DNA of 41,016 bases, taken from a virus. Lineage: Duplodnaviria > Caudoviricetes. The stretch covers positions 1 to 41,016 of the IMG/VR virus record IMGVR_UViG_3300032320_000125; one strand, 5' to 3'. The stretch's first letter is position 1. Every line of letters starts with the position of its first letter. Position numbers and translations under genes: made by a program. The notes beneath the pieces are model-generated. The model ran no database searches and was not told the origin of the DNA. It saw only the letters and a list, made by a program, of their open reading frames with translations. Of this stretch, positions 1-16,088 are shown piece after piece.

Positions 1-123
1 AGGTCCTGCTTCCACGAATCAGAGTTCTTTTCAAATCCGCCTGGAGGTCCAAAGGCGAGGTGTAAGTCCTGATAACGAGGATGGGTGAGTCTGTTCTTTA
101 TGGAGAGCAGGAACTTTTGCGCC
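1..123. repeat. Terminal direct repeat (circular assembly overlap)
   Basis: 1-123 is identical to 40894-41016 and the terminase reading frame runs through the join. Confidence 0.95.
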
Positions 124-617
124 ATAGCCTGGGTTTTAGAAACAACCATGATACGGATGTTAGGGTTTTGGCAAATCCGATATACAGCATAGTTGACCGT
201 AATGGTCGTAGACTTTGCGTGTTCTGGGGGAGTGTTAACGATGAGTAGGTCTTTATCCCCTGGCTCATAAATAATTGAAGGGTGGACATCCGTAGGCACT
301 CTGGATTCCAATAAATCAATCCAATGGCGTTGATGTTCAAAAACTTGAACCCCTAAGTATTTTTTGGAAAAAATCTCAAATGGGGGTACTTCTTCGGTCG
401 GACCGCCTACTTCTCCACGGGCGGTCAGAGAGCGCAGTTTGTCTATACCTGCAGCAAAGTCAGGGTCTGTCTTACGGTAATACTCGTAAGTCTTGACACT
501 TCTCCCAACGGCATCCATGGCTCGTTGGACCGAGTAGCCTTGCATTAAAAAATCTATAATCTGCTTCTTTATAGCATCCGACTTATGGGATGCAGCAGTA
601 ACTCTTTTTCTTTCCAT
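1..617 (-). CDS. terL: Terminase large subunit, 5' part (gene wraps the origin; about 621 aa in total) with N-terminal HTH-like segment
   Basis: Manual translation from ATG 617: MERKRVTAASHKSDAIKKQIIDFLMQGYSVQRAMDAVGRSVKTYEYYRKTDPDF...; Walker A-like PPEHAKST; continues in frame into 40893-39645. Confidence 0.9.
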   Translation of the reverse strand, partial: MERKRVTAASHKSDAIKKQIIDFLMQGYSVQRAMDAVGRSVKTYEYYRKTDPDFAAGIDKLRSLTARGEVGGPTEEVPPFEIFSKKYLGVQVFEHQRHWIDLLESRVPTDVHPSIIYEPGDKDLLIVNTPPEHAKSTTITVNYAVYRICQNPNIRIMVVSKTQAMAQKFLLSIKNRLTHPRYQDLHLAFGPPGGFEKNSDSWKQD

Positions 618-879
618 AGGCGTAGTAGCAATGCGACCTAATGGAAGCATTGCAGTTTATCCTTTCCTAACCGTAGGCTGTAGCCCTAAGGCGGAAGCCG
701 TAGGTTAGGGCAATAACTAGGGGGGCAGCCTAAGGGGCTGCCAGTGTGCTTGCAGTAGGGCGACCATTATTTTGCCCTACATATACTATTAGGTGTCCAG
801 AGGACACTTATTGGACATTTATTTTGTAACTATTTTGCAACGGTTTACCTTTCAGGTAAAACCGCAGGTCAGAGCAGTG

Positions 880-956
880 TGACCCCAGGGCTATCAAAGT
901 TATGTGGGTAGATACACAGACACACAGACACACAGATATTTAAAAACCTGGGGTCA
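880..956. repeat. 10-bp inverted repeat enclosing 3 x ACACAGAC tandem repeat
   Basis: TGACCCCAGG 880-889 and CCTGGGGTCA 947-956; ACACAGAC x3 (last copy partial) at 914-936. Confidence 0.8.
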
Positions 957-1440
957 AACATTTGCTGCTGCTTTGCTTTTGTTTAAACTGCTTGCTGATT
1001 TTGCTGGCACTGCTGGCAAAACTAGGGCTGAGCAGCACTATGCGCTGGCTTGGCGTTGACTCGCTGCTCGTATCAATCTCGCCCCCCCCCCTGCATACGC
1101 ATCGCAGCAATCGCAGCCTTGTTTAAACATAGTTGAACTTTCAACTACTTTCCGATGGCTCAGCCTGCATGCGTGGCATCTCACTATGTAAGACAACCGC
1201 AAACATCGCCATAAGTTACTCATCGGTAACACGCTAAAGTCAGTTGTTTAATATCACTTTAGAGCATCGCAACAATTCAACATCGCTGAAACCAGTATAA
1301 ATCAATGGTTTTAGAGCATTACTGATGAGTAACATATTTTTTTGTGCTCATCACTGCATGAACAATCGGAGGCAATCGCATCAACATCGAATCGTTTAAA
1401 CTGCCCCAAAGTCAGTTAAAATCAATGGTTTTAGGGGTGC

Positions 1441-1469
1441 TTGTAATTTTGTTTAAACTCGAATACCTT
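1441..1469 (+). promoter_or_regulatory. Putative sigma-A-type early promoter P1
   Basis: TTGTAA-N17-TACCTT upstream of the first early gene; a GTTTAAAC lies in the spacer. Confidence 0.55.
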
Positions 1470-1516
1470 AGTGCCAGTGGAACAATCCACTACCGACTGG
1501 AAACGGAGCACTACTC

Positions 1517-2047
1517 ATGAGCAATCGTGAATCATGGCTTGCAGACTTCGCTGCTGCAGCCAAGCCTTATGTCACCGAGGGTTTAAGCCTTGGTGGAAAC
1601 GAGGAGGCAGTAATTCGCCTCTCTTGTGGATTTACCCCTAAAACTGGTCGCAAGGCTGCAGATGCAGCAATTGTGCCTCCATCAGCATCCGATGACTTCA
1701 CTGCTGAGATTTTCGTATCACCAATCGTTGACTCAACTGAGGCAGTGGCAAAACTGGTGCTGCCTCTCTTGAAACTGGCTCATATCGGCAACTGGCGCTC
1801 AGCAGCACCAAGCGTTGCCAAGCCACTGGAAACCCTCCCAACATGGGCAAACTCAATCCTTGCCAATCTTGGAGCCTATCCACACGCAGCCCTTGAAATT
1901 GCTGCAGCACCTAAGCAAACAACTCGCCTCATCAAGGTCGAGTGTTTAAACGATGGATATATCGCTCGTGTTTCTCGCAGCACCTTGGTCAACCTTGGCG
2001 CTCCAATCTGCCCTGCATGCCACAACTCACTACTGGAGAGTAACTAA
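1517..2047 (+). CDS. SprT-like phage protein lacking HExxH
   Basis: RESWL, SCGF, EIFVSP, LGAYPHA, KQTTRLIKVEC, CPAC motifs typical of phage SprT-like proteins; no HExxH. Confidence 0.6.
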   Translation: MSNRESWLADFAAAAKPYVTEGLSLGGNEEAVIRLSCGFTPKTGRKAADAAIVPPSASDDFTAEIFVSPIVDSTEAVAKLVLPLLKLAHIGNWRSAAPSVAKPLETLPTWANSILANLGAYPHAALEIAAAPKQTTRLIKVECLNDGYIARVSRSTLVNLGAPICPACHNSLLESN

Positions 2048-2049
2048 CC

Positions 2050-2760
2050 ATGAAAACTTACGGAATCGAACTCGAAACAAGCAGCATCTCAATCCGCACC
2101 GCACAATCTGCACTCGATGCAGTCGGTTTAAACTGGTCATGCAAGCCCGATGGAACTCGTGGCGTTGATGCTGAGGCAGTTTCACCAATCCTCAACGATG
2201 GCAGTTTAAACGAGAGCCTCACCGCTGCTCGTGCCCTACTTCGTGCTGGTGCAACCGTTAACCGCCAAACTGGTTACCATGTCCATATCGGCGCTGACCA
2301 TTACGGCGTGGATGGAATCGCTGCAACGGTTCGCAACTGGTACACCGCAGCCAACGCAATCGGCGCACTCGTTGCCAAGTCTCGTTTAAACAATCACTTC
2401 TGCAATCACAACATCAGCGAGGCAGTCATTGACCAGTGGACTGAAAACATCCGCAACGGTTCAATCCGTAACATCGGAGGCAGTCGCTATCAATCACTAA
2501 ATCTCGACTCATACCAACGCCATGGCACAATCGAGTTTCGCCTACACCATGGCACCCTCAACGGTAAGAAAATCCAAGCATGGGCAGAGTTTTGCGAGGC
2601 TATCGCAACCTTCTCAACTGCTGGCGGAATCCTTGATGCAGGAACTGGTGACCGTTTAAACGACATCAAGTCACTGCTTGGCAAGTTAGTTATCAACGAG
2701 GCAATCAAACTCGACACTGCTAACTACCTCAACCAACGAGCAGTCGAACTCAGCGCCTAA
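2050..2760 (+). CDS. Putative amidoligase (COOH-NH2 ligase, Amidoligase_2-like)
   Basis: YGIELE, DGT, EAVSPIL, TGYHVHIG, RYQSLNL, TIEFRLHHGT motifs. Confidence 0.85.
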   Translation: MKTYGIELETSSISIRTAQSALDAVGLNWSCKPDGTRGVDAEAVSPILNDGSLNESLTAARALLRAGATVNRQTGYHVHIGADHYGVDGIAATVRNWYTAANAIGALVAKSRLNNHFCNHNISEAVIDQWTENIRNGSIRNIGGSRYQSLNLDSYQRHGTIEFRLHHGTLNGKKIQAWAEFCEAIATFSTAGGILDAGTGDRLNDIKSLLGKLVINEAIKLDTANYLNQRAVELSA

Positions 2761-2768
2761 CAAGCGCA

Positions 2769-2814
2769 GCCTGCCCCAAGTGGGCAAGCGAGGGAGCGTT
2801 ACCCTCGGCAGGCA
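2769..2814 (+). ncRNA. Candidate tRNA-like mini-structure (acceptor stem + T-arm geometry)
   Basis: 7-bp GCCTGCC/GGCAGGC stem stacked on a 5-bp GAGGG/CCCTC stem with a 7-nt loop; intergenic. Confidence 0.45.
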
Positions 2815-2859
2815 CTGGTACCAAATTGGTACCTTGTTTAAACAGAACGGACTGGAATC

Positions 2860-2955
2860 ATGAACAGCATCAACTACTGGTCAATCGTAGATGGTCGAGT
2901 GCTATTGCTTGGCTTGCTTGCGGTCGGCTTCTATCTATACGGAAAGAGAATATAA
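2860..2955 (+). CDS. 31-aa single-TM membrane peptide (not in ORF track)
   Basis: MNSINYWSIVDGRVLLLGLLAVGFYLYGKRI; GGACTGG leader; fills an operon gap. Confidence 0.6.
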   Translation: MNSINYWSIVDGRVLLLGLLAVGFYLYGKRI

Positions 2956-2959
2956 CAAA

Positions 2960-3106
2960 ATGTTATACATCATCGAGGGCATTGACTTCTATGGTCGGCG
3001 CTTCACTGGTGCATACAACAAAGAGGATGCGGATTACCTTCTTGCATCCGACCGTTTAAACAGGTTGGTAAAAGTTATCAACCCATGTGATACAATTAAC
3101 TCATAA
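2960..3106 (+). CDS. Hypothetical protein (48 aa)
   Basis: ATG 4 nt after the previous stop; MLYIIEGIDFYGRRFTG... Confidence 0.6.
   Translation: MLYIIEGIDFYGRRFTGAYNKEDADYLLASDRLNRLVKVINPCDTINS
3084..3096 (+). promoter_or_regulatory. Putative extended -10 promoter
   Basis: TG-A-TACAAT; CATGTGATACA recurs at 6100-6110. Confidence 0.5.
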
Positions 3107-3132
3107 CAACTAGCAGACTGGAGAAATAAATT

Positions 3133-3936
3133 ATGTGTGGAATCGCAGGCTTCTGCCTTAACCCAAAGCACAATCAGAATCAGACCGACCTTGCAGCACA
3201 GATGCTGCTCGACATCGAACATCGTGGCTACCATGCCACTGGCGCTGCTTGGATTAACCCCAAGTCAGGCAATCGTGTAATCACCAAAGCACCCGTTGCT
3301 GCAACCAAGTTCATCACAACAGATGCAGGCAAGCGACTATGTTTAAACGCACAGACCGCCATCTTGCACACTCGTTGGGCAACTCAGGGTTCGCCAAAGG
3401 TTAACGACAACAACCACCCAATTCCTCGTGGCAAAATCGTGCTCACTCACAACGGACACATCAGCAACGATGACCAATTGTTTAAACAACTCAAGGTCAA
3501 GCGCCATGGTCAGGTAGATAGCGAGGCAGTCGCTGCACTTATCGCCTTCACTGCTGCACCTATCTCCGAGGTACTCTCTCGTGTACAGGGCACCGCTGCC
3601 TTGGCTTGGATTGAACAGGGTAAGGGCAACACATTGCACCTTGCTCGTGTTAACTCATCGCCATTGTGGATTGGTCAGACTGGCACAGGTTCCCTCGTCT
3701 ATGGTTCAACCGAGGAGACTATCGAGAACGCAGCAGTAATGCTGGACTCCAACCTTGACTGGTCATACTCAGCAAACGAGGGTGAATACTTCAAGGTTAA
3801 AGATGGCAGAATCGTAGAGCACAAGAACTTCGAGCCATTTAAACAGGTCTATACAAACAACTGGCGTGGGTTCGGTAGACTAACCGATGCAGAACTCGAC
3901 AAGTATTGGGCTGACCAAGATGAACTAGCCTTCTAA
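3133..3936 (+). CDS. Class II (Ntn) glutamine amidotransferase
   Basis: MCGIAG N-terminal Cys, HRG..ATG, HTRWATQG, NNHP, HNGHI, VDSE. Confidence 0.92.
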   Translation: MCGIAGFCLNPKHNQNQTDLAAQMLLDIEHRGYHATGAAWINPKSGNRVITKAPVAATKFITTDAGKRLCLNAQTAILHTRWATQGSPKVNDNNHPIPRGKIVLTHNGHISNDDQLFKQLKVKRHGQVDSEAVAALIAFTAAPISEVLSRVQGTAALAWIEQGKGNTLHLARVNSSPLWIGQTGTGSLVYGSTEETIENAAVMLDSNLDWSYSANEGEYFKVKDGRIVEHKNFEPFKQVYTNNWRGFGRLTDAELDKYWADQDELAF

Positions 3937-3972
3937 GTTTCGGAGATAGCCCCAGCATCCTCCGATAAAGAT

Positions 3973-4001
3973 GCCCCCGCTTCGGCGGGGGTTTTCTTTT
4001 T
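3973..4001 (+). terminator. Rho-independent terminator
   Basis: GCCCCCGC-TTCG-GCGGGGGT followed by a T tract. Confidence 0.9.
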
Positions 4002-4231
4002 GCCTGGAATCTGGCAATCTTCAAGTGTTTAAACAAGGTGGTGGTGGTGGTGGGTCTGGTGGTACATAATGTTTAAACAGTTAGCACTCCAGGGACCAGA
4101 CTGCTAACGACATGCGTTTAAACAGTGCGGTTGACAGATGTGGTAGGATTTGGTTTTACCAAAGGTAAAACCTACAAGATACAGGCTATTGTTTAAACAG
4201 AAAAATAGTTTATCTTTTTTTATTTAAATCC

Positions 4232-4260
4232 TTGACATTATTTCTTGGCTTCGGAATACT
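4232..4260 (+). promoter_or_regulatory. Putative sigma-A-type early promoter P2
   Basis: TTGACA-N17-AATACT with an AT-rich upstream tract at 4199-4230. Confidence 0.65.
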
Positions 4261-4306
4261 CGGACATGTAGCAACAGTGCTACCAAGAACAAAGGACTGG
4301 ATACAA

Positions 4307-4498
4307 ATGAAAGAACGCTCAGCGCATGCCATCGCCCAAGGTGAGGCACGCAAATACTTAGTCAAAAAATACCGCAGTGAATACGATGCTATCTATCGCT
4401 CACATGTGCTTGCTTTAGGTGGCAAGGTAAAACCATCAACTGCTGAAAGAATCGAACATCTCAAGGCACAGATTGCAGAACTGGAGGCATCACTATGA
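4307..4498 (+). CDS. Hypothetical protein with C-terminal coiled coil
   Basis: Start moved to ATG 4307 (AAAGGACTGG leader); the TTG at 4232 is the -35 box. Confidence 0.7.
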   Translation: MKERSAHAIAQGEARKYLVKKYRSEYDAIYRSHVLALGGKVKPSTAERIEHLKAQIAELEASL

Positions 4499-4749
4499 GC
4501 AAGCCAACAACATACGAGGGCTGGAAAAACTACAACACATGGAACATTGCGTTGTGGATTCAGAACGACTACGCCCTCTACCTATCAGCAACTCTATTCA
4601 TCAAGAACTACCAAGGTGCCAAGCCTTATCGTGATTGGGTAAAGATTGCTGGACTCGAAGGCAAGGCAACACTAGATGGATGCAAGTACAACGCAAGCGA
4701 CCTCGCTTACGGAGAACTAAATGAAATGATGAAAGGACTGGTGAACTAA
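4495..4749 (+). CDS. Conserved phage hypothetical protein (GWxNYxTWNxALW family)
   Basis: YEGWKNYNTWNIALWIQND motif; ATGA overlap. Confidence 0.75.
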   Translation: MSKPTTYEGWKNYNTWNIALWIQNDYALYLSATLFIKNYQGAKPYRDWVKIAGLEGKATLDGCKYNASDLAYGELNEMMKGLVN

Positions 4750-4977
4750 ATGTTTAAACGCAACTGGCGCACTGCAGTTTCTTCTGATACCAAACCCAAG
4801 CAACCAAAAGTTTTATGGTACGCCGAGGTAACAGACGAGATGATTACCCACCTATCACCGTCTCAACGCAACGAGTTCATGAACAAACTCAGCGAGGAGA
4901 TTGACAAGATAGGTCGGGAGTATCAGGTAGGTAAAGAGTTCAAGAACGGACAACTAAAGGAGAACAACTATGCCTAA
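4750..4977 (+). CDS. Hypothetical protein
   Basis: Abuts the upstream stop; operon position. Confidence 0.7.
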   Translation: MFKRNWRTAVSSDTKPKQPKVLWYAEVTDEMITHLSPSQRNEFMNKLSEEIDKIGREYQVGKEFKNGQLKENNYA

Positions 4978-5332
4978 AGGTGCAGTGCTATACACAGATG
5001 GAACATACGAGGAGAAAGAGTTTAAACAACTCTCCGACATGCAAGCAGCAGTGGATGGACTCATCGAACCCATCGGGATGCATGACTTCTATGGTGCAGG
5101 CGTGTGCCAAGGCTATGTAAATGAGGAAGGACTGCTCAAAGGTTTATCACTCAACGCAGTGGCGAGCGCCATGTCTTTCATGTTCGGTAATACACCTAGT
5201 ATCGTGGGCAATATGATTGTCCTCGGTTTAACTAACGATGAGGGTGAGGACACCGACATCCCTCAAGACATCTTGACTTTTATCAGTCGAGTGTGCGGTA
5301 ACCGTGCAAAGTTAGAGGCTGAGTATGTTTAA
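4970..5332 (+). CDS. DUF3846-like protein
   Basis: MQAAVDGLIE...YVNEEGLL..L.LN..A...IVGN; AAGGAG RBS. Confidence 0.75.
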   Translation: MPKGAVLYTDGTYEEKEFKQLSDMQAAVDGLIEPIGMHDFYGAGVCQGYVNEEGLLKGLSLNAVASAMSFMFGNTPSIVGNMIVLGLTNDEGEDTDIPQDILTFISRVCGNRAKLEAEYV

Positions 5333-5762
5333 ACACATACACCCGCACGCCCGCATTTGGATGGCGACAGTAGTGATACTTGGAATCTTTCTTGTGTTCA
5401 ACCCACGAGTACAGATAACTTCACACGCACCCAAGGGCGAGGTCATTGCATACTACGACAACGAGTACCAACGCTACGCTATCCAACGCTTGATTGAACA
5501 GGACAAACTTGAACAGTACCCATGTCTCTATGAATTGTGGACACTTGAATCAAACTGGCGACCTGCTGCGCTAAACAAATCAAGCAAAGCCATGGGCATC
5601 GCACAACTTATGCCTTCAACATGGGTAAACATAAAGGTTAAGCCAACTAAAGACGGGTTTAAACAGGTTGATGCTGGCTTGAAATATCTTGACCACAGAT
5701 ACGGCAAGACTCGTGGCATCTGCCGAGCATACGCTCATCACCTTGCTAAAGGATGGTACTAA
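5325..5762 (+). CDS. Membrane-anchored lytic transglycosylase (SLT-like)
   Basis: N-terminal TM; CL..LW..ESNW, A.GIAQL, GLKY..HRYG, C.A......GWY. Confidence 0.85.
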   Translation: MFKHIHPHARIWMATVVILGIFLVFNPRVQITSHAPKGEVIAYYDNEYQRYAIQRLIEQDKLEQYPCLYELWTLESNWRPAALNKSSKAMGIAQLMPSTWVNIKVKPTKDGFKQVDAGLKYLDHRYGKTRGICRAYAHHLAKGWY

Positions 5763-6106
5763 TGGAGCCTACCCTTCACACTATCCAATCACGCATGAGT
5801 GTAAGCAACAGAGGCAAGAACTATGTCTCGTTTAAACTGCGCTCTAACCCACGCTTGTATGCCGAGGGTTCATGTCGAGGTATAGACACAGAGGTTTTCT
5901 TTCCTGATAAAGAAATCTTTTTGCCTGAGGAAGAAGCAACTTTCGTACGCATGTGTTCGGACTGCCCAGTCATGGAGTTATGCCAAGAGTGGGGGCTAGT
6001 GCATGAAAGGTACGGCGTATGGGGTGGGCTAACGCCCTTCCGTAGGCAGCAAGAACGCAAGCGCCGAGGTTGGATGGTGTCCGACCCACGAGGGTTCGGC
6101 ATGTGA
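5762..6106 (+). CDS. whiB: WhiB-family transcription factor
   Basis: Four Cys (C..CxxC..C), FFP, GVWGG turn, basic tail; TAATG overlap start. Confidence 0.92.
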   Translation: MEPTLHTIQSRMSVSNRGKNYVSFKLRSNPRLYAEGSCRGIDTEVFFPDKEIFLPEEEATFVRMCSDCPVMELCQEWGLVHERYGVWGGLTPFRRQQERKRRGWMVSDPRGFGM

Positions 6107-6118
6107 TACAGTAATCTC

Positions 6119-6210
6119 ATTGGGCATCTCCCTTACGAAGGGGAAGCGTAAAGTAGGTGCCCATACAAAAGCCCCGCAGGGTTCCAGTCCTTTGCGGGGC
6201 TTCTGTATTT
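6119..6210 (+). ncRNA. Candidate small RNA (5' stem-loop plus terminator hairpin)
   Basis: Promoter-like TG-A-TACAGT at 6104-6112; TGGGCATCT/AGGTGCCCA stem; long terminator hairpin at 6163-6208. Confidence 0.45.
6163..6210. terminator. Bidirectional terminator between convergent operons
   Basis: ATACAAAAGCCCCGCA / TGCGGGGCTTCTGTAT inverted repeat (1 mismatch). Confidence 0.85.
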
Positions 6211-6743
6211 TACAAACCTATTTGTTTAGCAAGCATGAACACTTCATCAGATAAATCATCTAGTGTTCCATCGTTATACAACACATGTTTAAACATGAAG
6301 TTATCCATAGCATGTTCACTCTTGTGTGCATTGACTGGCGCATGGTTGTGTCGGTTGATACGCCACACTTGACCACCGTACTGCAGGATTTCATTAGCCT
6401 CATTAGGAAAGCGAACATCAGAGAACACAACCTTAGTTCCTTCTAACTTATCGAACGCTTGCTGCACCCAAAAGTTATCACCAAATTGTTGGCGACCTAC
6501 ATCAGTACCAAACACTTGAAGCAAACGCCTTACCTCAGGGTTACCCTTGGCTACATCCCAACCATACTCATCTACCAAATCAGCAACACGACTATTAAGA
6601 TTAAAGACTATTGGGTTGAGTGTGTAGATAGCATCACGCATTGGTTGAGCAAACGACATGCGTGTGTACCCATAGTTTAAACACAACAGTTCAGCAACAG
6701 TGTCCTTACCTGATTGTGCGTATCCACTTAAACCAATAATCAT
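6210..6743 (-). CDS. Deoxynucleoside monophosphate kinase
   Basis: GLSGYAQSGKDT P-loop, SFAQP, RLLQVFGT, SDVRFPNE. Confidence 0.9.
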   Translation of the reverse strand: MIIGLSGYAQSGKDTVAELLCLNYGYTRMSFAQPMRDAIYTLNPIVFNLNSRVADLVDEYGWDVAKGNPEVRRLLQVFGTDVGRQQFGDNFWVQQAFDKLEGTKVVFSDVRFPNEANEILQYGGQVWRINRHNHAPVNAHKSEHAMDNFMFKHVLYNDGTLDDLSDEVFMLAKQIGL

Positions 6744-6901
6744 TTGTCAATGTATCCAATCTGCTTGCGTTTAAACCAAATTATTTTATCTCCTGCCAGG
6801 TAAGTATAATACCCTATGTCGTTTAAACAGATGCCAATGTAATACAACGGCAGTCCTATTAAGTTCCATGGTCTCATGCGTTGGTACTTAGGTCTAATCA
6901 T
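6740..6901 (-). CDS. Hypothetical small protein
   Basis: Likely ATG 6901 overlapping the upstream stop; ATGA overlap downstream. Confidence 0.6.
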   Translation of the reverse strand: MIRPKYQRMRPWNLIGLPLYYIGICLNDIGYYTYLAGDKIIWFKRKQIGYIDK

Positions 6902-7544
6902 TATCGGGTTTCCTGTATCTACGATTGTTCCATTGAGGTTGTTCCCCACCTAGTCTGTCTTGTAACTTGGTAAGTGCACGAGACACACGCTTACGCAACG
7001 CTTCCTCGCTGGCACCATACTCAACGGCAAGTACATCAAAGTCAGTACCACCACCGTCAAACCTACGCCGCAAGAGGTCCCTGTCTTGCTCGTTTAAACG
7101 GGCAAGTGAGCCGCTTACATCTGACAACATTGCTTCTCTGTTCATACCCTCATTAGGTTTACTTGTCTTACTAATAAACTCTGCTTCTGCTAGTGAACCT
7201 GACTGCACCCACTGCTCGTAGTTCCATACATCACGCAGTAACTCTTGGAGTATCTCGTGTGTATAGTAGAACGCATCGCTTGGTACAGACTTTGTTTTAT
7301 ATGCACGCTCTTTCGCTGCAAACTTCTGACTCTCGTTGTTAAATGTTCGGCGCAGTTTAAACACTAAAGAATCCTGCCCTTCCCACTCCTCAATTTTATG
7401 CCAGTGTTCTACTGCCCATAAGTTTAGGTGTTGGAATACATCATCAGCAGACACGAGGTTGCGATGGATACGCACACATCGTGTTGCACTGTAGCGTGCC
7501 ACTTTGTATACGCTTTCCCATAACAATTCGTTATTGTTCTCCAT
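6894..7544 (-). CDS. Sigma-70-like / region-4 HTH transcription factor
   Basis: LNEQDRDLLRRRF...FDVLAVEYGASEEALRKRVSRALTKL HTH; N-terminal SADDVFQ helix. Confidence 0.7.
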   Translation of the reverse strand: MENNNELLWESVYKVARYSATRCVRIHRNLVSADDVFQHLNLWAVEHWHKIEEWEGQDSLVFKLRRTFNNESQKFAAKERAYKTKSVPSDAFYYTHEILQELLRDVWNYEQWVQSGSLAEAEFISKTSKPNEGMNREAMLSDVSGSLARLNEQDRDLLRRRFDGGGTDFDVLAVEYGASEEALRKRVSRALTKLQDRLGGEQPQWNNRRYRKPDND

Positions 7545-7926
7545 GTTTAAGTTCCTTCATTGTAGTTAGTAAATCCTCGATAGTAATTAGAAAGCCTTTA
7601 CTCCAGTTCGGTGGTATCTCGCAAGTAATCTCCCTGCCAAACTCCCTGATTGCGTAGTGCACATGGTCTGTTGGTACCATGACAACACCACGCTCAAGAA
7701 CAAACGCCCAATACTCAGCAGTAGTAACCATCAAACCCGATGGCTCCCAAGATTTACTCTTGTTAAACCAACACTCAACTTCTACATAAATGTTGTTAGT
7801 CGCCCACCACTTACGGTCACGCTTAACTTCTACTGTCTTGCCTTCTGTTAGTAAAGCCTCAACTAATTGTTCGCCCTTCCGACCAAAGCCAAAGTCCAAA
7901 TCAAATGATGAGTTCTTTACCATCAT
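7531..7926 (-). CDS. PD-(D/E)XK-like phage protein
   Basis: FDLD..G..GE, VEVKRD, NIYVE, PSGL..T.AEYW. Confidence 0.55.
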   Translation of the reverse strand: MMVKNSSFDLDFGFGRKGEQLVEALLTEGKTVEVKRDRKWWATNNIYVEVECWFNKSKSWEPSGLMVTTAEYWAFVLERGVVMVPTDHVHYAIREFGREITCEIPPNWSKGFLITIEDLLTTMKELKHGEQ

Positions 7927-7928
7927 GT

Positions 7929-8546
7929 TTAAACACCCGCTCGCTTGCGTAATCCTTCTGCACCTTCGGTTAAGTAAACATCATTAACATCTTGACCCTC
8001 AGGCATAAAGACAGGGAACACATTGTCTAGTTCTCTACTTAAATGCTTAGCCATCTCACGCCCTGCGTTGTCACCATCGCACAACAAAATAACCTTTGAC
8101 CAGTCAGCAAGTACACGATTGTAAAAGGACTTCCAGTTGTTAGCACCAGGCAAACCAACCGCACTGAACCCTGCTTGTGTTGCTACAACCGTATCGAGTT
8201 CACCCTCACAGATAGCAAGCACATCTGAATCATTGCTAAGTGCAGTGATGTTATAGATATGAGTCGTAGCCCCTGGTCTGCTCATATATTTCGGACCACC
8301 ATCACTGTTTAAACTACGGAACCGTATGTCAATCACACCTGTAGGTGTGAGGTAAGGGATTGCTAACTTACCAACATAAGGTTCATGCCCCATCTCAGGC
8401 TCTCTTACGAAGCCGAGGCGAAACATAGTCGCTGTCTGTTCTGTGATACCTCTGCTCTGTAGATACGGCACTATTTCCTGTAGGTTTTGAGCGTAACTCT
8501 CCGTTGCTTTCTCCAGTAATTCCTTCTGCGATTTGCTTAGCCTCAT
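7929..8546 (-). CDS. DNA primase, TOPRIM domain
   Basis: IPYLT, IRFR, PKY, ICEGELD, GLPGA, DGDNAG, GQDVND. Confidence 0.92.
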   Translation of the reverse strand: MRLSKSQKELLEKATESYAQNLQEIVPYLQSRGITEQTATMFRLGFVREPEMGHEPYVGKLAIPYLTPTGVIDIRFRSLNSDGGPKYMSRPGATTHIYNITALSNDSDVLAICEGELDTVVATQAGFSAVGLPGANNWKSFYNRVLADWSKVILLCDGDNAGREMAKHLSRELDNVFPVFMPEGQDVNDVYLTEGAEGLRKRAGV

Positions 8547-8775
8547 TGAATCCCACTCCTTCTTTTTTCATGATAAGTGAATACACATCTCCAGCCATCT
8601 CACATCCGAAGCAACGAAACCCACCGTTGTCTATGTTTAAACGGGCAGACTTAACTCTATCACCGTGGAAAGCGCAGCGTAGGGTGAACCAGCCACGCCT
8701 TCCATGCGGTATTTCAAAACCGTAATGCTCAAGAACTTTAACTATGTCGTGCTTAGAGTTTTGCAAGGATGTCAC
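8395..8775 (-). CDS. DNA primase, CHC2 zinc-binding domain
   Basis: CAFHGD...S...FRCFGC...GDVYSLIM..EG..F.EA. Confidence 0.88.
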   Translation of the reverse strand: MTSLQNSKHDIVKVLEHYGFEIPHGRRGWFTLRCAFHGDRVKSARLNIDNGGFRCFGCEMAGDVYSLIMKKEGVGFNEAKQIAEGITGESNGELRSKPTGNSAVSTEQRYHRTDSDYVSPRLRKRA

Positions 8776-9118
8776 CTAGCCTTTGCACAACATAGGCATC
8801 CTCAATTCCTTTATTAGATGCCTTAATAATTACTAATGGTGTAGGTGCGAGCGCAAGTTTCTTAGACTTACGGTAGTTCTCTGCTTCTACATACGCCTCC
8901 CGCAACCATCCTGATAGGTCAATCTTTCCATCACGGCGTGGTGCCTTGGCTTCAATAACATACAAGTCGTTAGCAGTAGGTAATGCAACATCACCAATGT
9001 CATTGCGACCTGCACGAGGTAGGCGTTGTGCGTTTAAACCCTGAGTCATAAACCAATCAGCAAGGTCTATCTCAAACGATGCACCTCTGCGCTTATTACT
9101 CTGCTGTTGGCTCGCCAT
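8753..9118 (-). CDS. Holliday junction resolvase (Hjc-like PD-(D/E)XK)
   Basis: NKRRGASFE, G.NDIGDV, IEAK; start moved to MASQQQ. Confidence 0.75.
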   Translation of the reverse strand: MASQQQSNKRRGASFEIDLADWFMTQGLNAQRLPRAGRNDIGDVALPTANDLYVIEAKAPRRDGKIDLSGWLREAYVEAENYRKSKKLALAPTPLVIIKASNKGIEDAYVVQRLGDILAKL

Positions 9119-9827
9119 TTGTCTGCCTCTCTGCTGCTGCTGCAGCCTGCCAGTACAACGCATAGTAGTTCTCGTCATAGGCAAACCGTTTCATGTGTTT
9201 AACAACCGCACCAGTGTGTGCATACACATCAACACCAGCCTTCTTTAAGTTACGGAAGAACACAATGTCCTCGCCAACATACTTATCTCCTAGTCCTTCC
9301 TTCTCAGCAAATACTGAGTAGTCAGGTGAGACGGCACGCAACTTAGGAACAACACTGCGATGCATCAAGGTAAGACCCAAGCCAGCGCAGTCAACCTTTA
9401 CTACTTCATCCTTAGGTAGTGGGTGTAAGTATCTAATCTCATACTCACTAACCTCAGTAAACAAAGCAGGCATGGGCTGCATCAACGATGACTCCATTTG
9501 CTTGGAGATAAAGTAAGTGCCACATACAACTGGCTTAGTGTTCTTGTCTGCTATTTTCCATAGCATGGCAAGCACATCAGTGGTAAGTACAATGTCAGAG
9601 TCAACCCATAACAACCAGTCTGTCTTTACTTTGTCATACCACATGTCCATTAACGCTTGGCGTTGTCTGCCAATCTGATTACCTTGCACACGGATAGCGT
9701 TGTTAATTGCCATCTTATGGGTAGGTGCAGTTACAGTTGTATACATAATACCTTCGGCAAACTTGCCATCCACCATACCGTTATCGCACCAACCAAGAGA
9801 TAATGTTTCCTGATTACTGTTAGCCAT
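9096..9827 (-). CDS. GT-A fold glycosyltransferase
   Basis: WLLWVDSD (DxD), CAGLGLTLMHRSV, GEDIVF, HTG...KH. Confidence 0.8.
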   Translation of the reverse strand: MANSNQETLSLGWCDNGMVDGKFAEGIMYTTVTAPTHKMAINNAIRVQGNQIGRQRQALMDMWYDKVKTDWLLWVDSDIVLTTDVLAMLWKIADKNTKPVVCGTYFISKQMESSLMQPMPALFTEVSEYEIRYLHPLPKDEVVKVDCAGLGLTLMHRSVVPKLRAVSPDYSVFAEKEGLGDKYVGEDIVFFRNLKKAGVDVYAHTGAVVKHMKRFAYDENYYALYWQAAAAAERQTNGEPTAE

Positions 9828-10110
9828 TGTGCTCCCCTTCTGCTTCATCAAGAACCCGTAATGCGTTCTCTCCCATTTGTTTAAACGAGTTGGACATGTT
9901 AGTTAACTGCTCCGCTATGTCTAGTATGCAATCTCTACCGTGGTCATCCTTAAGATGATTAGATAATTGTGTTACATAGTCTGCAAACTGCATGGCTTCT
10001 AGCCATATCTGATGGGGGTCGTATACCTTCTTGGCTACTTCTTCCATCTGCTCAATTACTTGAGGCAGTTCTTCAAGCAGTGCTTCCTTCATCTCCGCTG
10101 GTAACTTCAT
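9820..10110 (-). CDS. Hypothetical helical protein (start uncertain)
   Basis: Acidic helical ORF filling the operon; upstream extension overlaps the neighbour. Confidence 0.6.
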   Translation of the reverse strand: MKLPAEMKEALLEELPQVIEQMEEVAKKVYDPHQIWLEAMQFADYVTQLSNHLKDDHGRDCILDIAEQLTNMSNSFKQMGENALRVLDEAEGEHNG

Positions 10111-10390
10111 CTTGCTTACCAACTTTTCCATCTCCCCCTGTGGGATTGACAGACCCGCTTGTAATATATTGATTGTACTCTGCTTCGGATAGGTCTTTGA
10201 ACTGACCAGTCTCTTTATTCTGCCAAACAATTGCCCTCCAACCAACGGTAAATGTAAGTGTCTTAGGCTTAGCAATCATTAACTGAGCCTTGATGTCTAT
10301 GAGGAGAGGTTTTGTTTCAACTGCAATCTCGTCTTTGACTTTATCTGCTGGTATTTCACCAGCGTTTTCAACTACTGTAAGTTCCCACAT
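10073..10390 (-). CDS. Hypothetical protein
   Basis: AGGAG RBS; operon position. Confidence 0.7.
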   Translation of the reverse strand: MWELTVVENAGEIPADKVKDEIAVETKPLLIDIKAQLMIAKPKTLTFTVGWRAIVWQNKETGQFKDLSEAEYNQYITSGSVNPTGGDGKVGKQDEVTSGDEGSTA

Positions 10391-10398
10391 GTGTTCTC

Positions 10399-11196
10399 CT
10401 AAATTAACTGCATTGGTTCGTATGAAATTACATCATTGATTTGCATTGATGCTGGTTCATACGACAACCACACTGGTGTACCACCAGTTGCATCTGCTGG
10501 ACCATAACGGTTCTTAACTGCACAGACTCCCATTGTAGAAATCTGATTATGTACGGTAAGAATTAACGAAGGAGTCTGCGCCACCTTGCCATGCAGTGCC
10601 TTCTGTGGTGGACATGGATTGCCTGGCACGCCTTCGCTAGTGTGGTGACACACAACAACGGCTGCTCCAGTTTCTCTAGCCCACCATTTCAATTCTTTCA
10701 TTAAGGTACGCAGTCCACCCCACTCATCTTGCGAGTCCATCGTTACATCCACTGCGTTATCTAATACGATTAAACGCACATCTTCGCCCAGTCGCTCACG
10801 AGATGCAAGGACTGCATCTTCAATATCTTTAAGCGTTGGGGATGAATCAAACTCCCACATAATATGGTCAGCGGGCTTGAGCATTTGTGCTGCCCAGTCT
10901 CTGTCTTGTTCCATCAATGGTTCAACATCTGACTGATGCTTGCCAGTTAGCAAAGCAAGTAGACGAAGGCTCATCGTATGTGAGTGTGTGTCTGCAGAAA
11001 TATAAAGGGTTGGAACTTTTGCACGGACTGCCAAGGACAAAGCAAGTGTTGACTTACCTGCCCCTGGCGGTCCAGCAATCATGCTTACCTCGCCGTAACG
11101 GATTGCTATTTGCTGCGCTGCAAGTGATTGCCACACTACAGGTAGTGTCGCTCCCCCTTGTGATGCAGTTTTAATAGCACGGCTGAGTAGGCGCAT
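10399..11196 (-). CDS. DnaB/RecA-like ATPase (helicase)
   Basis: GPPGAGKS Walker A, LIVLD Walker B, VKNRYG Arg finger. Confidence 0.9.
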   Translation of the reverse strand: MRLLSRAIKTASQGGATLPVVWQSLAAQQIAIRYGEVSMIAGPPGAGKSTLALSLAVRAKVPTLYISADTHSHTMSLRLLALLTGKHQSDVEPLMEQDRDWAAQMLKPADHIMWEFDSSPTLKDIEDAVLASRERLGEDVRLIVLDNAVDVTMDSQDEWGGLRTLMKELKWWARETGAAVVVCHHTSEGVPGNPCPPQKALHGKVAQTPSLILTVHNQISTMGVCAVKNRYGPADATGGTPVWLSYEPASMQINDVISYEPMQLI

Positions 11197-11199
11197 GGG

Positions 11200-11616
11200 T
11201 TATGCAGGTACCTTGTTTTGGCAAGCCTGACCCTGAGGTTGTGGACATGCATAGAAGCCCTTGTATGGGCGACCAGTTGCCTTTGCAATACCTGCTGGAA
11301 CTAAGCGCATTGCTCCTGCTCCACATGTGCACTGTGGTGCTGGTCCACCTGCTGGCTTATAGCCTGCAACTGGAGCCTGTGATATTACTTGTGCATTTGG
11401 AAATGCTGCAGCAATAGTTGCTGCTGGTGAAGGTGTTGGTGCTGGTGTAGCCATTGATTCAACTGTTGATTCTAAATCAAGCAGTGTTGCAAGGCGTTGT
11501 GATATTGCATCTAGTAGACCATCAAGTTCAATCGCATCGTTAGCACGAAGGTTAATCAACATGCCATCACGCTTTGTCTTGAAGTTAATCTGAATTGCTG
11601 CTTCGGTAGTGCTCAT
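11200..11616 (-). CDS. Hypothetical protein with C-terminal Zn ribbon (possible ssDNA binder)
   Basis: Pro/Ala linker then CTCG...M...G..K.TG.PY..FYACP...C. Confidence 0.65.
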   Translation of the reverse strand: MSTTEAAIQINFKTKRDGMLINLRANDAIELDGLLDAISQRLATLLDLESTVESMATPAPTPSPAATIAAAFPNAQVISQAPVAGYKPAGGPAPQCTCGAGAMRLVPAGIAKATGRPYKGFYACPQPQGQACQNKVPA

Positions 11617-12467
11617 TTGTTTTCTCCTATAGTTATTTCAGGGTAGAGGTGGGAGTCTTTACCGCCCACTGCATAGCATGCAGCGTTGACAGAGCAAGTA
11701 CCACACATGGTGCTTACTTGTGGGATAAAGATTTTATTTTCGATGGCTAACTCAAAGCCCTTAGCCCATGAACCAAGGCGAGCCTCAGTGTAACGGTCCA
11801 ATGATTGAGGAGCAGTAAGTTCCCCAGTACGAGCCATAAAGTATGAGCCAAGAGATGGGCGAACACCAAAGGTTTTCTCCACAAGAATTGCGTAGATACC
11901 TAGTTGAGTTAGTGAGGCAGGTTCACGAGAACTTGTCTTAATGTCTACTACTATCAACTCACCAGTCGGTGCAACCATTAGTCGGTCGAGGAACGCCTTT
12001 AAAGGTACGCCCCCAACTTCCTGATTAAGTTCTGTTTCAATAGCCTCACTGCCATCAGGTAACTGATACATATTGAAGCCACTGTCTTGTCTGAACTGTG
12101 TCCAAAAGTTAATCATCTTTGGTCCGTTGTCTAACCACCAACCAGCATCCTCTTTATTTGGATTGAGTTTAGTAGCACGACCACCTGCACGCCAAGGCAT
12201 ACCGTTGTCGGCACCCTTGAAGTTGTTATCCCAGAAAGTTGTAAATGCTGCAATCTCTGAGAAGTCATCTTGGTTAGGTAGTCCATGATACAAACGGTCG
12301 TACTGCTCCGTTGCCTCGTGTACTGCCTTACCACCTGCTAACCAGTATGATGGTTGTTCTGGAACATGTTGTATTCGTGATAGGTAGAACTGCCACCCAC
12401 AACTGAGCCATGTATTTAGGGCAGAGTGGCTGACATAATTCTTACCTGTAACTTGTTCAAGTGTCAT
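11613..12467 (-). CDS. Cas4/RecB-family exonuclease
   Basis: SHSAL..W..C, G.AVH, LDR, VDIKT, QL.IY, CxxC..C. Confidence 0.9.
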   Translation of the reverse strand: MTLEQVTGKNYVSHSALNTWLSCGWQFYLSRIQHVPEQPSYWLAGGKAVHEATEQYDRLYHGLPNQDDFSEIAAFTTFWDNNFKGADNGMPWRAGGRATKLNPNKEDAGWWLDNGPKMINFWTQFRQDSGFNMYQLPDGSEAIETELNQEVGGVPLKAFLDRLMVAPTGELIVVDIKTSSREPASLTQLGIYAILVEKTFGVRPSLGSYFMARTGELTAPQSLDRYTEARLGSWAKGFELAIENKIFIPQVSTMCGTCSVNAACYAVGGKDSHLYPEITIGENK

Positions 12468-12527: not shown

Positions 12528-12576
12528 AGAAGATAATTACACACATGTAGTTTAAACAACTACTACACTCCTGTTC

Positions 12577-12831: not shown

Positions 12832-12940
12832 AGCATATTTGTTTTACCGCCTTGGTTTTAGCCTTGGAGTAAAGCGTGAACAAAAAGCAAGGATGCGCCG
12901 TTTAAACGCACTAAAAAGGATTCTTAATACTCGTGAGTAA
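12797..12940 (+). CDS. 47-aa membrane peptide (not in ORF track)
   Basis: MKLILILIVLIEAYLFYRLGFSLGVKREQKARMRRLNALKRILNTRE; overlaps both neighbours. Confidence 0.55.
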   Translation: MKLILILIVLIEAYLFYRLGFSLGVKREQKARMRRLNALKRILNTRE

Positions 12941-13109
12941 GTACGAATACAAGTGTCCACAATGTGAGATAACAGTGGAGATTGAGCGCTCAATGCATGC
13001 AGAGGCAGATGCCCCTATGTGTACATGCTGCAGTCAACTGATGTCTCGTGTGTGGAGTAGCCCTGGTGTGAAGTTTAATGCCCCTGGTTTCTACAGTACA
13101 GGCGGATAA
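12933..13109 (+). CDS. FmdB-family zinc-ribbon protein (58 aa, not in ORF track)
   Basis: GTG start; YEYKCPQC...CTCC..LMSRVWS...VKF...GFYST. Confidence 0.85.
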   Translation: MSKYEYKCPQCEITVEIERSMHAEADAPMCTCCSQLMSRVWSSPGVKFNAPGFYSTGG

Positions 13110-13443
13110 ACCAAAGCAGCATCGCCTGCTGCTCAAGAACCCAGCCAAACGATGGGGTATCTGTGCAGTGTGTGGACCCACAAGACTTAAGTTAAAGCAA
13201 CGGGGCTACTGGTCTTGTCGAACAAAGTCTAATGTTAACCGTGTTAAGTTATCCAAGTACAAGAAGGATTACTGTGAGGAGTGTGGCTTCGTAGCCATAC
13301 ACCGCAGCCAGTTGGATATAGACCACATAGATGGCAACCATTTAAACAATGACATGGCAAATCTACAGACACTATGTGCCAACTGCCACCGACTAAAGAC
13401 CCAAGACAATAGAGATTGGGAAAGCAAAAAAGCCCCCCGCTAA
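13078..13443 (+). CDS. HNH endonuclease
   Basis: CEECG...DIDHIDGNHLNN...NLQTLCANCH. Confidence 0.9.
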   Translation: MPLVSTVQADKPKQHRLLLKNPAKRWGICAVCGPTRLKLKQRGYWSCRTKSNVNRVKLSKYKKDYCEECGFVAIHRSQLDIDHIDGNHLNNDMANLQTLCANCHRLKTQDNRDWESKKAPR

Positions 13444-14440: not shown

Positions 14441-14610
14441 TATTCATCCTTTGGGTTGCGTAGTCGGTATGTAATAGCCCAAGCAACCAAGGTGCCTGAG
14501 ATTGCATAGCCAACTACTGTCTTTGCTGAACCATCAAGGACTACCCAAGCAATGAACATGCCAAGTAAAGTCCATAGTTGTTCAACCATGTCTTTGATTA
14601 TTTTCTTCAT
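14440..14610 (-). CDS. 56-aa two-TM membrane protein (not in ORF track)
   Basis: MKKIIKDMVEQLWTLLGMFIAWVVLDGSAKTVVGYAISGTLVAWAITYRLRNPKDE; ATGA and TAATG overlaps. Confidence 0.8.
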   Translation of the reverse strand: MKKIIKDMVEQLWTLLGMFIAWVVLDGSAKTVVGYAISGTLVAWAITYRLRNPKDE

Positions 14611-16088
14611 GGGTTTCTCCTATAGGCTGCTGCTGCCACCATGCCTGCTGCATTAACTGCAGCCTGCCCAGCAATAACTGTTGCGACAATAATCTTTTCT
14701 GCTTCTTCTCTTTCTTCAACTGACATGTCAGCACCGATGCTTGCTAATGCAAGTAAGGCTTGTCCTGGGTCAGTAAAGAGCGCTTCAACAAGGGCTGCTG
14801 GAGATTCCAATACAACCAATGCTGCTGCTACTTCTGCCGTGATAACAACTTCGTTACCGTTCTCATCTTGACGAACTTCAACAGGTGTATCAGGTGGTAA
14901 ATCTTCATAGGTTAAGCCTGCTTCTTGGATAGCCTGTGCTGTAACTGGCTTACCTTCTGCTGCTTCAATGAGTGCTTCTGCTACTACTGCTCTTTCCTCT
15001 GGTGTAGAATCTTCTGTAGCCACAACTGGTGGTTCAGGTTCTATAGCAGGGGGTTCAGGTGCAGGTTCAGGAGCAAGTTCGGGAACTGGAGGAGCAGGAA
15101 CTTCCTCTACAGGAGGGGCTTCTTCCTCGACAGGTGGCTCCTCAACAGGTAGAGGTGGTTCCTCTGCAGGAGCAGGAGGTTCTTCAACAGGAACAGGCTC
15201 TGGAGCAGGAGGCTCTGGCGCTACCTCTGGAGCAGGCTCAGGCTCTACTGGCGCAGGTTCAGGCTCAGGTAGAGTGGCTGGAGGTTCGGGTGCGGGTACT
15301 GGTTGGACTTCTGCAACAGGTTCAGGTTGAGGTGCAGGCGCTGGCTCAGGCTGTGGGACTGGGGCAGGCTGCGGAGCAGGCTCAGGTTGTGGCTGTGGAG
15401 CAGGAGGCTCAGGTACTGGAGTTGGCTCAGGTTGAGGCTGAGGAACTGGAGTCGGAGTTGGCTCTGGAGGAGTCACTGGAACAGGAGCAGGAATAGGTGA
15501 AGGCTCAGGTGTAGGCTGTGTTTCAGGAACAACAGGCGTTGGTTCTACAGTAGGAGTAGGGGTTGGAGATGGTTCAGGCAACGGAGCAGTATTGGAAGGC
15601 TCAGGTTGAGGAGTTGAAGTTGGAGTTGGTTCGGGCGAAGGCTCAACTGTTGGTGTTACAGAAGGCGTTGGACTCGGTTCAGGTGTCGGAGTCGGACTTG
15701 CGGTTGCAGTTGCGCCGTCAGATGGCGAAGGAACAGGGGTTGGCTCCGAAGTGGCGCTCGGTGACGGAGTAGGTGTTGGTGTAGGTTCAGGTGCAGGAGC
15801 AGTTGTTACGCCATTGTAATACCATGTGCTCTCAGGAGCAGTGGTGCTAATAAAAGTTTTCCATTGACCTTGTGTTCCAATAGAACAAAACAAGGCAGCA
15901 ATGTTTCCTTTGCCTTCAAAGAAAGGTTCGGTTGTACTCCAACCAACTCTAAACTCTTTGGATTCACCACCCTCATTAGCGCATACAACAGTGATTGGAC
16001 CTGTCTGTTCTGCTTGGGCTGATGGTGTAAAGAAAAAAGAAGTTCCTAGTGTAAGGAACGATACTGCAAGTAAACGGGGAAGTTTCAC
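14607..16088 (-). CDS. Exported Pro/Glu/Thr-rich stalk protein
   Basis: Signal peptide (AQA cleavage), small 2-Cys domain, long PEP/PT repeat, hydrophobic C-terminus ending RRNP. Confidence 0.8.
   Translation of the reverse strand: MKLPRLLAVSFLTLGTSFFFTPSAQAEQTGPITVVCANEGGESKEFRVGWSTTEPFFEGKGNIAALFCSIGTQGQWKTFISTTAPESTWYYNGVTTAPAPEPTPTPTPSPSATSEPTPVPSPSDGATATASPTPTPEPSPTPSVTPTVEPSPEPTPTSTPQPEPSNTAPLPEPSPTPTPTVEPTPVVPETQPTPEPSPIPAPVPVTPPEPTPTPVPQPQPEPTPVPEPPAPQPQPEPAPQPAPVPQPEPAPAPQPEPVAEVQPVPAPEPPATLPEPEPAPVEPEPAPEVAPEPPAPEPVPVEEPPAPAEEPPLPVEEPPVEEEAPPVEEVPAPPVPELAPEPAPEPPAIEPEPPVVATEDSTPEERAVVAEALIEAAEGKPVTAQAIQEAGLTYEDLPPDTPVEVRQDENGNEVVITAEVAAALVVLESPAALVEALFTDPGQALLALASIGADMSVEEREEAEKIIVATVIAGQAAVNAAGMVAAAAYRRNP

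Follow-up and report, generated by a model that had tools for sequence, protein, structure and literature searches.

What reads an 8-bp palindrome that one virus carries 48 times, and to what end? The word, GTTTAAAC, is scattered over a 41,016-nt stretch of viral DNA (Duplodnaviria; Caudoviricetes; IMG/VR record IMGVR_UViG_3300032320_000125, positions 1 to 41,016), analyzed here as a whole and called the window. Copies of GTTTAAAC are maintained and re-created by selection acting on DNA, and the word tracks and co-switches with the allele of a zinc ribbon encoded by the first early gene (1517-2047, plus strand). These copies are very probably binding sites contacted directly by the 1517-2047 protein, hereafter the reader.

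A palindromic word maintained by selection

The 48 exact copies of GTTTAAAC form a dense block and a dispersed remainder, with none at 1-980:

981-9886, no strand assigned: dense GTTTAAAC block of 33 sites, covering the early genes that run rightward and, in the leftward replication operon, the distal half
12550-39916, no strand assigned: 15 GTTTAAAC sites dispersed through the remaining genome and likewise under selection, with 11 of 15 synonymous opportunities taken

Chance predicts 0.87 copies under an order-0 model and ~2 under a Markov-3 model; each one-mismatch variant occurs only 0-3 times, and the flanks show only a mild T/C bias. An earlier reading, made from the sequence only, had counted 48 copies by eye, 33 of them within 981-9886, with about one expected, and exact counts agree with it. 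Its proposal that codon choice serves the word also withstands synonymous shuffling within genes (1000 rounds), which never reaches the observed number: genes up to 10125 hold 23 copies against a shuffle mean of 2.9 (maximum 10), and the remaining genes hold 11 against 0.8 (maximum 5). Protein-permitted places actually spell the word in 23 of 27 cases up to 10125 and in 11 of 15 elsewhere (34/42 together).

Amino acids are also altered to make room for GTTTAAAC, on both strands. Word-compatible peptides number 17 against 1.8 expected in the rightward genes (1517-6106), 10 against 1.8 in the leftward genes (6210-10125) and 15 against 8.6 in the late genes; the upstream half of the same leftward operon (10399-12467) has 0 against 0.6. 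This enrichment in both rightward and leftward genes upholds the claim of a DNA-level signal regardless of strand, and the codon pattern reported for the amidoligase is exact, Leu-Asn being written TTA AAC in four of five cases after Gly, Ser or Arg and CTC AAC in three of three after Ile, Thr or Tyr. Altogether, 34 of the 48 sites are wholly intragenic. Spacing within the dense block (mean 278 bp) is more even than random, with a coefficient of variation of 0.66 against 0.95 (P=0.011), and the same holds in five of six unrelated carrier genomes (P <0.0002 to 0.03), Zeta1847 being the exception (P 0.17).

Sites shared with relatives exceed neutral retention in seven of seven aligned relatives (for example, 20 against 1.4 at 71% identity), and GTTTAAAC sites are also gained and lost in all seven. 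Density drops away from the terminase-proximal end in six of six complete relatives examined, two of them with other words, so that both the word and its polar gradient are conserved. Chromosomes of the presumed host class differ: each of 101 actinobacterial-class genomes contains 0-7 copies, 75 having none. Three streamlined 49%-GC genomes (1.4-1.5 Mb) hold 1, 3 and 5 copies against 7-mer expectations of 1.9, 5.0 and 2.2, making GTTTAAAC 350-1700 times rarer per kb than in the window; specific depletion in these host-like chromosomes is apparent against a reversed control and vanishes against the 7-mer expectation. Since the sampled actinobacterial chromosomes have so few copies, GTTTAAAC is no host signature among them, although the true host may lie outside the sample, and the signal, for which a host origin had also been considered, is phage-specific.

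The word follows a SprT-like gene with a zinc ribbon

1517-2047, plus strand: candidate reader, first early gene, 176 aa; SprT/zincin-like without HExxH, plus a C-terminal zinc ribbon
1898-2044, plus strand: zinc-ribbon domain, residues 128-176; putative DNA-reading part, predicted homodimer with strand 148-153 across the two-fold axis

No window gene other than 1517-2047 is found repeatedly in the unrelated phages and plasmids rich in the word. Sixteen named phage and plasmid records, chosen from hit lists for diversity and not at random, were taken whole. The canonical ribbon is present in 11 of the 16, and 10 of these 11 have 5-41 copies of GTTTAAAC or GTTTACAC. Five whole records contain 0-2 copies: WRightOn, which has no homolog, and two pairs, one with a divergent ribbon and one with a cysteine-free tail. 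Record OX376640 also lacks a homolog of 1517-2047 and contains one GTTTAAAC plus six scattered variants. Word and gene occur together in phages of Arthrobacter, Microbacterium, Streptomyces, Dinoroseobacter, Burkholderia, Methylophilales and E. coli, and on alphaproteobacterial plasmids.

Co-occurrence was then examined blind in viral loci picked solely by ribbon codons (120 returned out of ~500 estimated, 80 of them with flanks), with 80 loci picked by a thyA motif, not matched for genome type, as controls. GTTTA[A/C/G]AC is enriched in 66/80 blind loci and 0/80 controls; GTTTAAAC totals 471 against 26 expected in the former and 28 against 38 in the latter. Enrichment is found in 59 of 73 blind loci that share no other gene with the window and in 32 of 41 ribbon clusters after removal of kin. 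Word density is highest near the gene, at ~1 per kb within 1 kb, and falls to 0.2-0.4 beyond 3 kb upstream.

The readers named in the sequence-only reading do not hold up. Homologs of the sigma-like helix-turn-helix (HTH) protein (6894), WhiB, the 7531 product and the small basic protein (23667) persist in relative G008, a carrier of the type-2 allele described below with 0 copies of the word, and are therefore rejected; none of the four is found in unrelated word-rich genomes, save one weak WhiB match. The window's HTH-type genes do not track GTTTAAAC. An FmdB-type ribbon at 12933 is likewise present in G008, and the amidoligase/glutamine amidotransferase pair is missing from unrelated carriers.

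The reader matches annotated SprT-like proteins in 127 phage records over its full length (E to 2e-14), and related proteins form 1047 clusters at 50% identity. The window protein has no direct Pfam match, a PDB sequence search returned nothing, and the type-2 allele matches PF10263 at 2.8e-6. The catalytic motif HExxH is absent from the window protein and from its close homologs (0/120), indicating a pseudo-protease, and is present in 118/148 distant homologs; it is intact in 74/80 blind ribbon loci and 76/80 type-2 loci. An AlphaFold model displays two domains (mean predicted local distance difference test score, pLDDT, 88), the N-domain resembling zincins weakly (best Z 5.5, root-mean-square deviation [rmsd] 3.7, 89 aligned residues).

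The ribbon is conserved and four-ligand, with invariant residues Q134, R137, L138, C143, Y148, R151, S153, P163, C165 and C168. Two ribbons with zinc are predicted to pair via strand 148-153 and residues 160-172, residues 150-152 pairing across copies. The dimer score is 0.66 against 0.02 for the best control, with runs agreeing in 100% of contacts and pLDDT of at least 81; 20 of 30 solved homodimers pass the same mark, as does 1 of 23 single chains, a calibration only roughly applicable here. Such a modeled two-fold strand pair, presenting invariant R151 and S153, would suit a palindrome. Fold searches with the ribbon alone gave generic zinc ribbons only (best Z 3.5), no Foldseek match at E<=0.001 and, in the Atlas, unnamed small clusters only (best 0.90). 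Open reading frames (ORFs) consisting of the ribbon only (55-72 aa where a start is callable) retain full arrays, with 9-27 sites per locus and 39 in L073, which singles out the ribbon as the part that matters; the protease domain is dispensable for the array.

Several observations attach to this gene and its carriers. Amidoligase_2 and class II glutamine amidotransferase genes (2050-3936) lie directly behind the reader gene and are missing in G008. The 12933-13443 region (plus strand) comprises two small genes against the local strand, one for the FmdB-type zinc ribbon (a PF09723 match below cut-off), the other for an HNH endonuclease. Venkman, an unrelated Methylophilales phage (L124-L125) with the reader as gene 1, is polar likewise, with 32/34 sites in its first 19 kb. 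In Epa5 (L109-L112) and CN1 (L118-L120), the protease part is joined to a tail without cysteines, and no GTTTANAC array is present; their genomes are rich in CCTGGGC (144 against 25 and 91 against 23), possibly a third reader-word pair or mere codon bias.

Ribbon alleles and words switch together

Comparison of 43 terminase relatives with at least 2.5 kb of upstream sequence revealed 32 users of GTTTAAAC, 3 of GTTTAGAC and 8 of TTAAGACA. All eight TTAAGACA relatives lack a match to 1517-2047, and the four that were read encode a different SprT-ribbon allele with HExxH (type 2) in the same first-gene slot. Among loci picked by the type-2 allele (80 of 86), TTAAGACA is enriched in 77/80 and GTTTAAAC in 0/80, and TTAAGACA is enriched in 0/80 type-1 loci; its flanks in type-2 loci stretch it towards the palindrome TGTCTTAAGACA. 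The allele label switches four times on the terminase tree (36 rows), at least two switches being forced, under well-supported branches.

The switch extends to single codons. At Cys-Leu-Asn in the dNMP kinase, 9 of 12 distinct type-1 codings read TGT TTA AAC, all four type-2 codings read TGT CTT AAT and a lineage free of TTAA reads TGT CTA AAC. Three further orthologous positions likewise spell the allele's word, with two exceptions among 26 distinct type-2 codings. The TTAA-free lineage has a nearly identical ribbon and uses GTTTAGAC (36), GTTTACAC (11) and GTTTATAC (6), never GTTTAAAC. In this sister lineage (G009 / L069, L200, L216, L223), TTAA is absent (0 against 106 expected), which suggests that the host has an enzyme cutting TTAA and makes restriction avoidance the likely cause of the variant words. 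Retention of an array of TTAA-free variants also makes methylation mimicry, one of the roles raised in the sequence-only reading, unlikely.

Most variant users lack TTAA (G009, 0 against 106; Crosby, 0 against 16; Zeta1847, 0 against 9; Maureen, 1 against 20). L170, L164 and L167 use variant words although TTAA is not avoided, so some readers may truly differ in word. Pooled variants tolerate change only at position 3/6 (6.3x, 5.5x and 1.6x), the others ranging from 0.6 to 1.25x, and doubly changed words are not enriched. Inspection by eye gave no residue code separating GTTTAAAC from GTTTACAC readers, and a link of the type-2 allele to plasmid Mpr was not established, the accessible part of PMC7783346 giving no usable connection.

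Promoter-proximal sites and proposed mechanism

1441-1469, plus strand: predicted reader-gene promoter, TTGTAA-17 bp-TACCTT, by consensus match only; site 1451-1458 lies in the spacer, a likely autorepression operator
4027-4198, no strand assigned: four intergenic sites grouped a short way upstream of the predicted early promoter TTGACA-17-AATACT (4232-4260)
12530-12559, minus strand: weak promoter-like sequence (regex scan, weak consensus) overlapping site 12550, upstream of the leftward replication operon

Sites recur ahead of the reader gene. In nine of nine relatives shown, a site lies within ~120 bp upstream, in varying registers that place it before, inside or just after promoter-like boxes; in 9 of 11 records (with three starts placed manually according to alignments), one lies within ~100 bp upstream. 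Maureen carries 17 GTTTACAC, one just behind the -10-like box of its reader gene. Blind clusters have a site within 160 bp upstream in 10 of 41 cases against 3.6 expected. Such positions at or near promoter-like boxes constitute an autorepression signature, though not a universal one. The nearest site of the 4027-4198 cluster ends 33 bp ahead of the -35 box of the 4232 promoter.

In the mechanism we favor, the zinc ribbon of the reader would dimerize and read the GTTTAAAC palindrome, and the bound protein would shut down its own promoter (1441-1469, site 1451). A coat with a site about every 280 bp along the early arm could then damp the early and replication genes, serving as a timing switch or keeping the genome quiet in a slow-growing host. 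The parts of this account differ in strength: the reader probably represses its own promoter, whereas the chances that silencing is the purpose of the intragenic sites are evenly balanced, and the same even balance applies to the whole account of a self-repressing ribbon-dimer repressor bound at GTTTAAAC that damps early and replication genes. The sequence-only reading had taken the copies for binding or modification sites and had offered four roles; most likely they are binding sites, selected, polar and phage-specific, and early-gene silencing is the best mechanism among the four.

Comparison with known systems

A close functional parallel is the L5-type operators and stoperators of cluster A mycobacteriophages, described in PMC9283540 as more than 20 dispersed sites for one phage protein, one of them in a promoter, with silencing proposed. 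The stoperator is an asymmetric 13-mer, whereas the word here is an 8-bp palindrome, and its reader is a monomeric protein with an HTH and a stoperator domain, in place of a zinc ribbon predicted to dimerize and fused to a protease fold. Stoperators occupy short intergenic spaces and are oriented with transcription in a temperate phage (PMC9283540); here most sites are intragenic with recoded proteins, no orientation rule applies and no integrase was found in the window. The system acts like a dispersed-operator repressor and fails four defining features of the stoperator family.

Homologs in the cluster AZ phages of Arthrobacter are the SprT-like proteases Lizalica gp46 and Maureen gp49 (bioRxiv 10.1101/2025.05.26.655371). 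There the homolog is proposed as a candidate DNA-binding repressor, and its truncation accompanies clear, not turbid, plaques. The main text of the preprint contains "TTTA" 0 times and no recognition site, its supplements including Fig. S3 lying outside this statement. The AZ protein has an intact HExxH, which is lost in the window protein. SprT-like peptidases in jumbo phages have been noted as likely directed at host proteins (PMC7824862).

The reader's N-domain aligns with 6mdx at Z 4.7 (rmsd 4.6, 89 residues), a weak resemblance tied with many zincins. SPRTN and Wss1 likewise join a zincin-type protease fold to a small zinc DNA-binding domain, but they are DNA-dependent metalloproteases directed to crosslink lesions rather than to a sequence word, and the window protein lacks the catalytic motif. 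With the ribbon-helix-helix (RHH) repressors Arc and MetJ the ribbon would share a predicted two-fold strand pair with outward I149, R151 and S153, followed by a helix; it differs in being zinc-stabilized with one short helix, and no RHH protein appears among its listed fold matches. HIP1, Chi and DNA uptake sequences, which mark chromosomes for host machines, are also short words selected within coding DNA at the cost of amino-acid changes. GTTTAAAC, unlike these, is a mark on mobile DNA that goes with a gene of the element itself, and the sampled host-class chromosomes hardly contain it.

Weighing the interpretations

Several results weigh against the account of a reader that binds the word and silences early genes. 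A Ralstonia plasmid has a canonical ribbon yet 0 sites, no clear word is apparent in two Microbacterium phages whose ribbon is divergent, and 14/80 blind ribbon loci fall below threshold, two of them with no GTTTAAAC and only one variant. All type-2 loci come from one phage clade. Of the 41 blind clusters, 31 lack a site directly upstream of the gene, and in the window none overlaps the strongest predicted early promoter (4232). The largely intragenic sites show no clear pull to gene starts: 7 against 6.3 expected lie within 50 bp, 22 against 12.4 within 100 bp, and 16 against 13.1 in the early block. Asymmetric variants show no orientation to transcription; in non-coding DNA, sense/antisense counts are 13/17 for GTTTACAC and 13/13 for GTTTAGAC, and coding DNA uses both orientations (by crude ORF calls). 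Only TTAAGACA departs from this pattern, with a bias of 21/3, but it frequently lies next to stop and ribosome-binding sequences; for the other words polarity beyond coding opportunity was rejected. As a reversed stoperator does not block elongation (PMC9283540), the unoriented variants leave a roadblock effect unproven. No integrase was found in the window or among 150 ORFs neighboring the reader gene in 39 neighborhoods, no lysogeny genes were found in the window or beside the gene elsewhere, and a cultured relative is lytic (PMC10202952). The AZ hint, drawn from two phages with four changes between them (bioRxiv 10.1101/2025.05.26.655371), implicates the protease domain, which is dead here.

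Binding by the reader leaves room for purposes other than silencing. Tentatively, the word and gene may form a widespread, undescribed self-marking system of mobile DNA, in which a zinc-ribbon dimer would anchor a SPRTN-like protease or its dead derivative; the ribbon would then be a new DNA-binding domain that is sequence-specific and whose words (GTTTAAAC, its one-letter variants and TTAAGACA) depend on the allele, and regular anchoring would control which host proteins sit or move on the element genome. A protective role for the same reader is rather unlikely: evenly spaced sites would tether the N-domain, an active zinc protease in most family members and a dead binding module here, to the element's own DNA, there to strip, cleave or block host proteins acting on incoming DNA (nucleoid silencers, translocating restriction or SMC-type machines, end-resecting nucleases or protein-DNA crosslinks). 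Even spacing in the window and in five of six unrelated genomes suits coverage better than promoter control, and the unoriented sites, the HExxH motif kept by most blind and type-2 loci, a gene at most two ORFs from a terminase gene in 4/39 and from ocr in 1/39 neighborhoods, and host-like chromosomes nearly without the word, which would separate self from host, all fit a tether. Yet the catalytic motif is lost throughout this clade, and some members have lost the whole domain while dense arrays stay; the phage already purges restriction sites, with GATC, AGCT, GGCC, CCGG, CGCG and ACGT all at 0; and a first-gene protein would arrive after the early arm is exposed, so that sites would be expected on later-entering DNA unless the protein is packaged.

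That the coat instead pulls in, compacts, anchors or partitions the genome, as an entry ratchet or in ParB/parS-like handling of a genome that stays unintegrated, is improbable. It would account for a gradient that runs from a probable genome end across the strand switch and stops inside an operon, and the gene does occur on plasmids and near ParB-like genes in ECO1230-10, IndyLu and L191; but a ratchet would be most needed for late-entering DNA, where sites are sparse, many carriers have a uniform low density of one site per 1.3-4.5 kb, and no partition ATPase was found in the window. Reading or modification of the word by a host factor (as a genome signature, methylation mimic or nick site), with the SprT gene merely co-traveling, appears very improbable. 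Co-occurrence does differ from binding, and early modules move as blocks, but beyond the scarcity of the word in the 101 actinobacterial genomes, it recurs with the gene across phages of many hosts and on plasmids, and within one clade it changes when the allele does, even at the level of single codons in a gene 5 kb distant; no methyltransferase was found in the window. An artefact of codon use or composition, to which the tolerance of TTAA-containing words amid the purging of many other palindromes might point, has next to no probability, being refuted by the shuffles, which never match the count; retention above neutral in all seven aligned relatives and the emergence of new sites also speak against it.

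Novelty and implications

Searches of the literature for the word or for its link with the gene turned up no description of the site, most subscription papers lying outside their reach. The results assign a testable recognition word to a large phage and plasmid family annotated merely as "SprT-like protease" and offer a candidate for the unidentified immunity repressor of the cluster AZ phages, with 17-27 GTTTACAC mapped in the two AZ genomes examined. They also reveal that selection on a DNA signal can be intense enough to change the sequences of early proteins. Natural allele swaps, together with a variant shift that coincides with TTAA avoidance, amount to a ready reader-word code, and a domain of 50 residues that recognizes a rare 8-bp word would, if confirmed, be a compact DNA-binding tool. 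Cultured carriers exist in Maureen/Liebe, Tweety19, Crosby, Venkman and R5C.

Genome organization and a possible genome end

The phage genome is complete and circularly assembled at 40,893 bp, the contig ends overlapping by 123 bp. The contig was opened inside the terminase gene (632 aa, minus strand, start 650/617), which matches Streptomyces phage terminases at 41% and record OX376640 at 44%, the latter labeled as cultured Ca. Planktophila phage E7. Further features are WhiB, a sigma-70 region 4 protein, a split primase and a DnaB-like helicase, with a 2018-aa protein among the virion genes; neither an integrase nor a methyltransferase was found among the window's 59 ORFs. Gene content and terminase similarity point to a freshwater actinophage. 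A nucleotide search of positions 1-12000 against cultured phages gave no match.

1-650, minus strand: 5' part of the terminase gene, continuing over the circular join into 39645-40893; without GTTTAAAC
940-1261, no strand assigned: possible short terminal repeat or physical end, containing sites 981 and 1121; a weak hint

The array begins ~360 bp upstream of the terminase start, past a 1965-bp site-free gap across the circular join. Its abrupt start was correctly noted in the sequence-only reading, as 1-980 has no site, but coordinate 1 is not a genome end, because the contig is circular and cut within the terminase gene. In the Streptomyces relatives, the terminase starts ~660-750 bp from one end of the genome, and transcription of the opposite arm runs inward, so the true end is probably near the array start; by this analogy with cultured relatives, the claim that the array coats the first-ejected end is plausible. 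In a sequencing run that is a possible source of this genome, the 940-1261 unitig has a depth of 145 against ~100 on either side, while other unitigs reach 113-130.

Other features accompany this organization. GATC, AGCT, CCGG, CGCG, GGCC and ACGT are each expected more than 100 times in the window from base composition and are absent, as are 41 of 64 six-base palindromes, an extreme purging of restriction sites common to most relatives and relaxed in L036. The neighbor scan of 150 ORFs returned mostly no family, with an AAA+ ATPase in 6/39 neighborhoods, five of them with DUF7192; it follows the SprT-ribbon gene in L170, L179, L180, L189, L230 and L231. A 493-aa Pro/Glu-rich protein (14607-16088, minus strand) has a predicted signal-like start and no family match. 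An HTH-like segment (PF13384, E 0.006) lies at the N-terminus of the large terminase (1-650 plus 39645-40893, minus strand); the window yielded no small terminase as a separate gene. Short tandem GACACACA repeats at 900-940, just ahead of the possible terminal repeat, may mark a packaging end.

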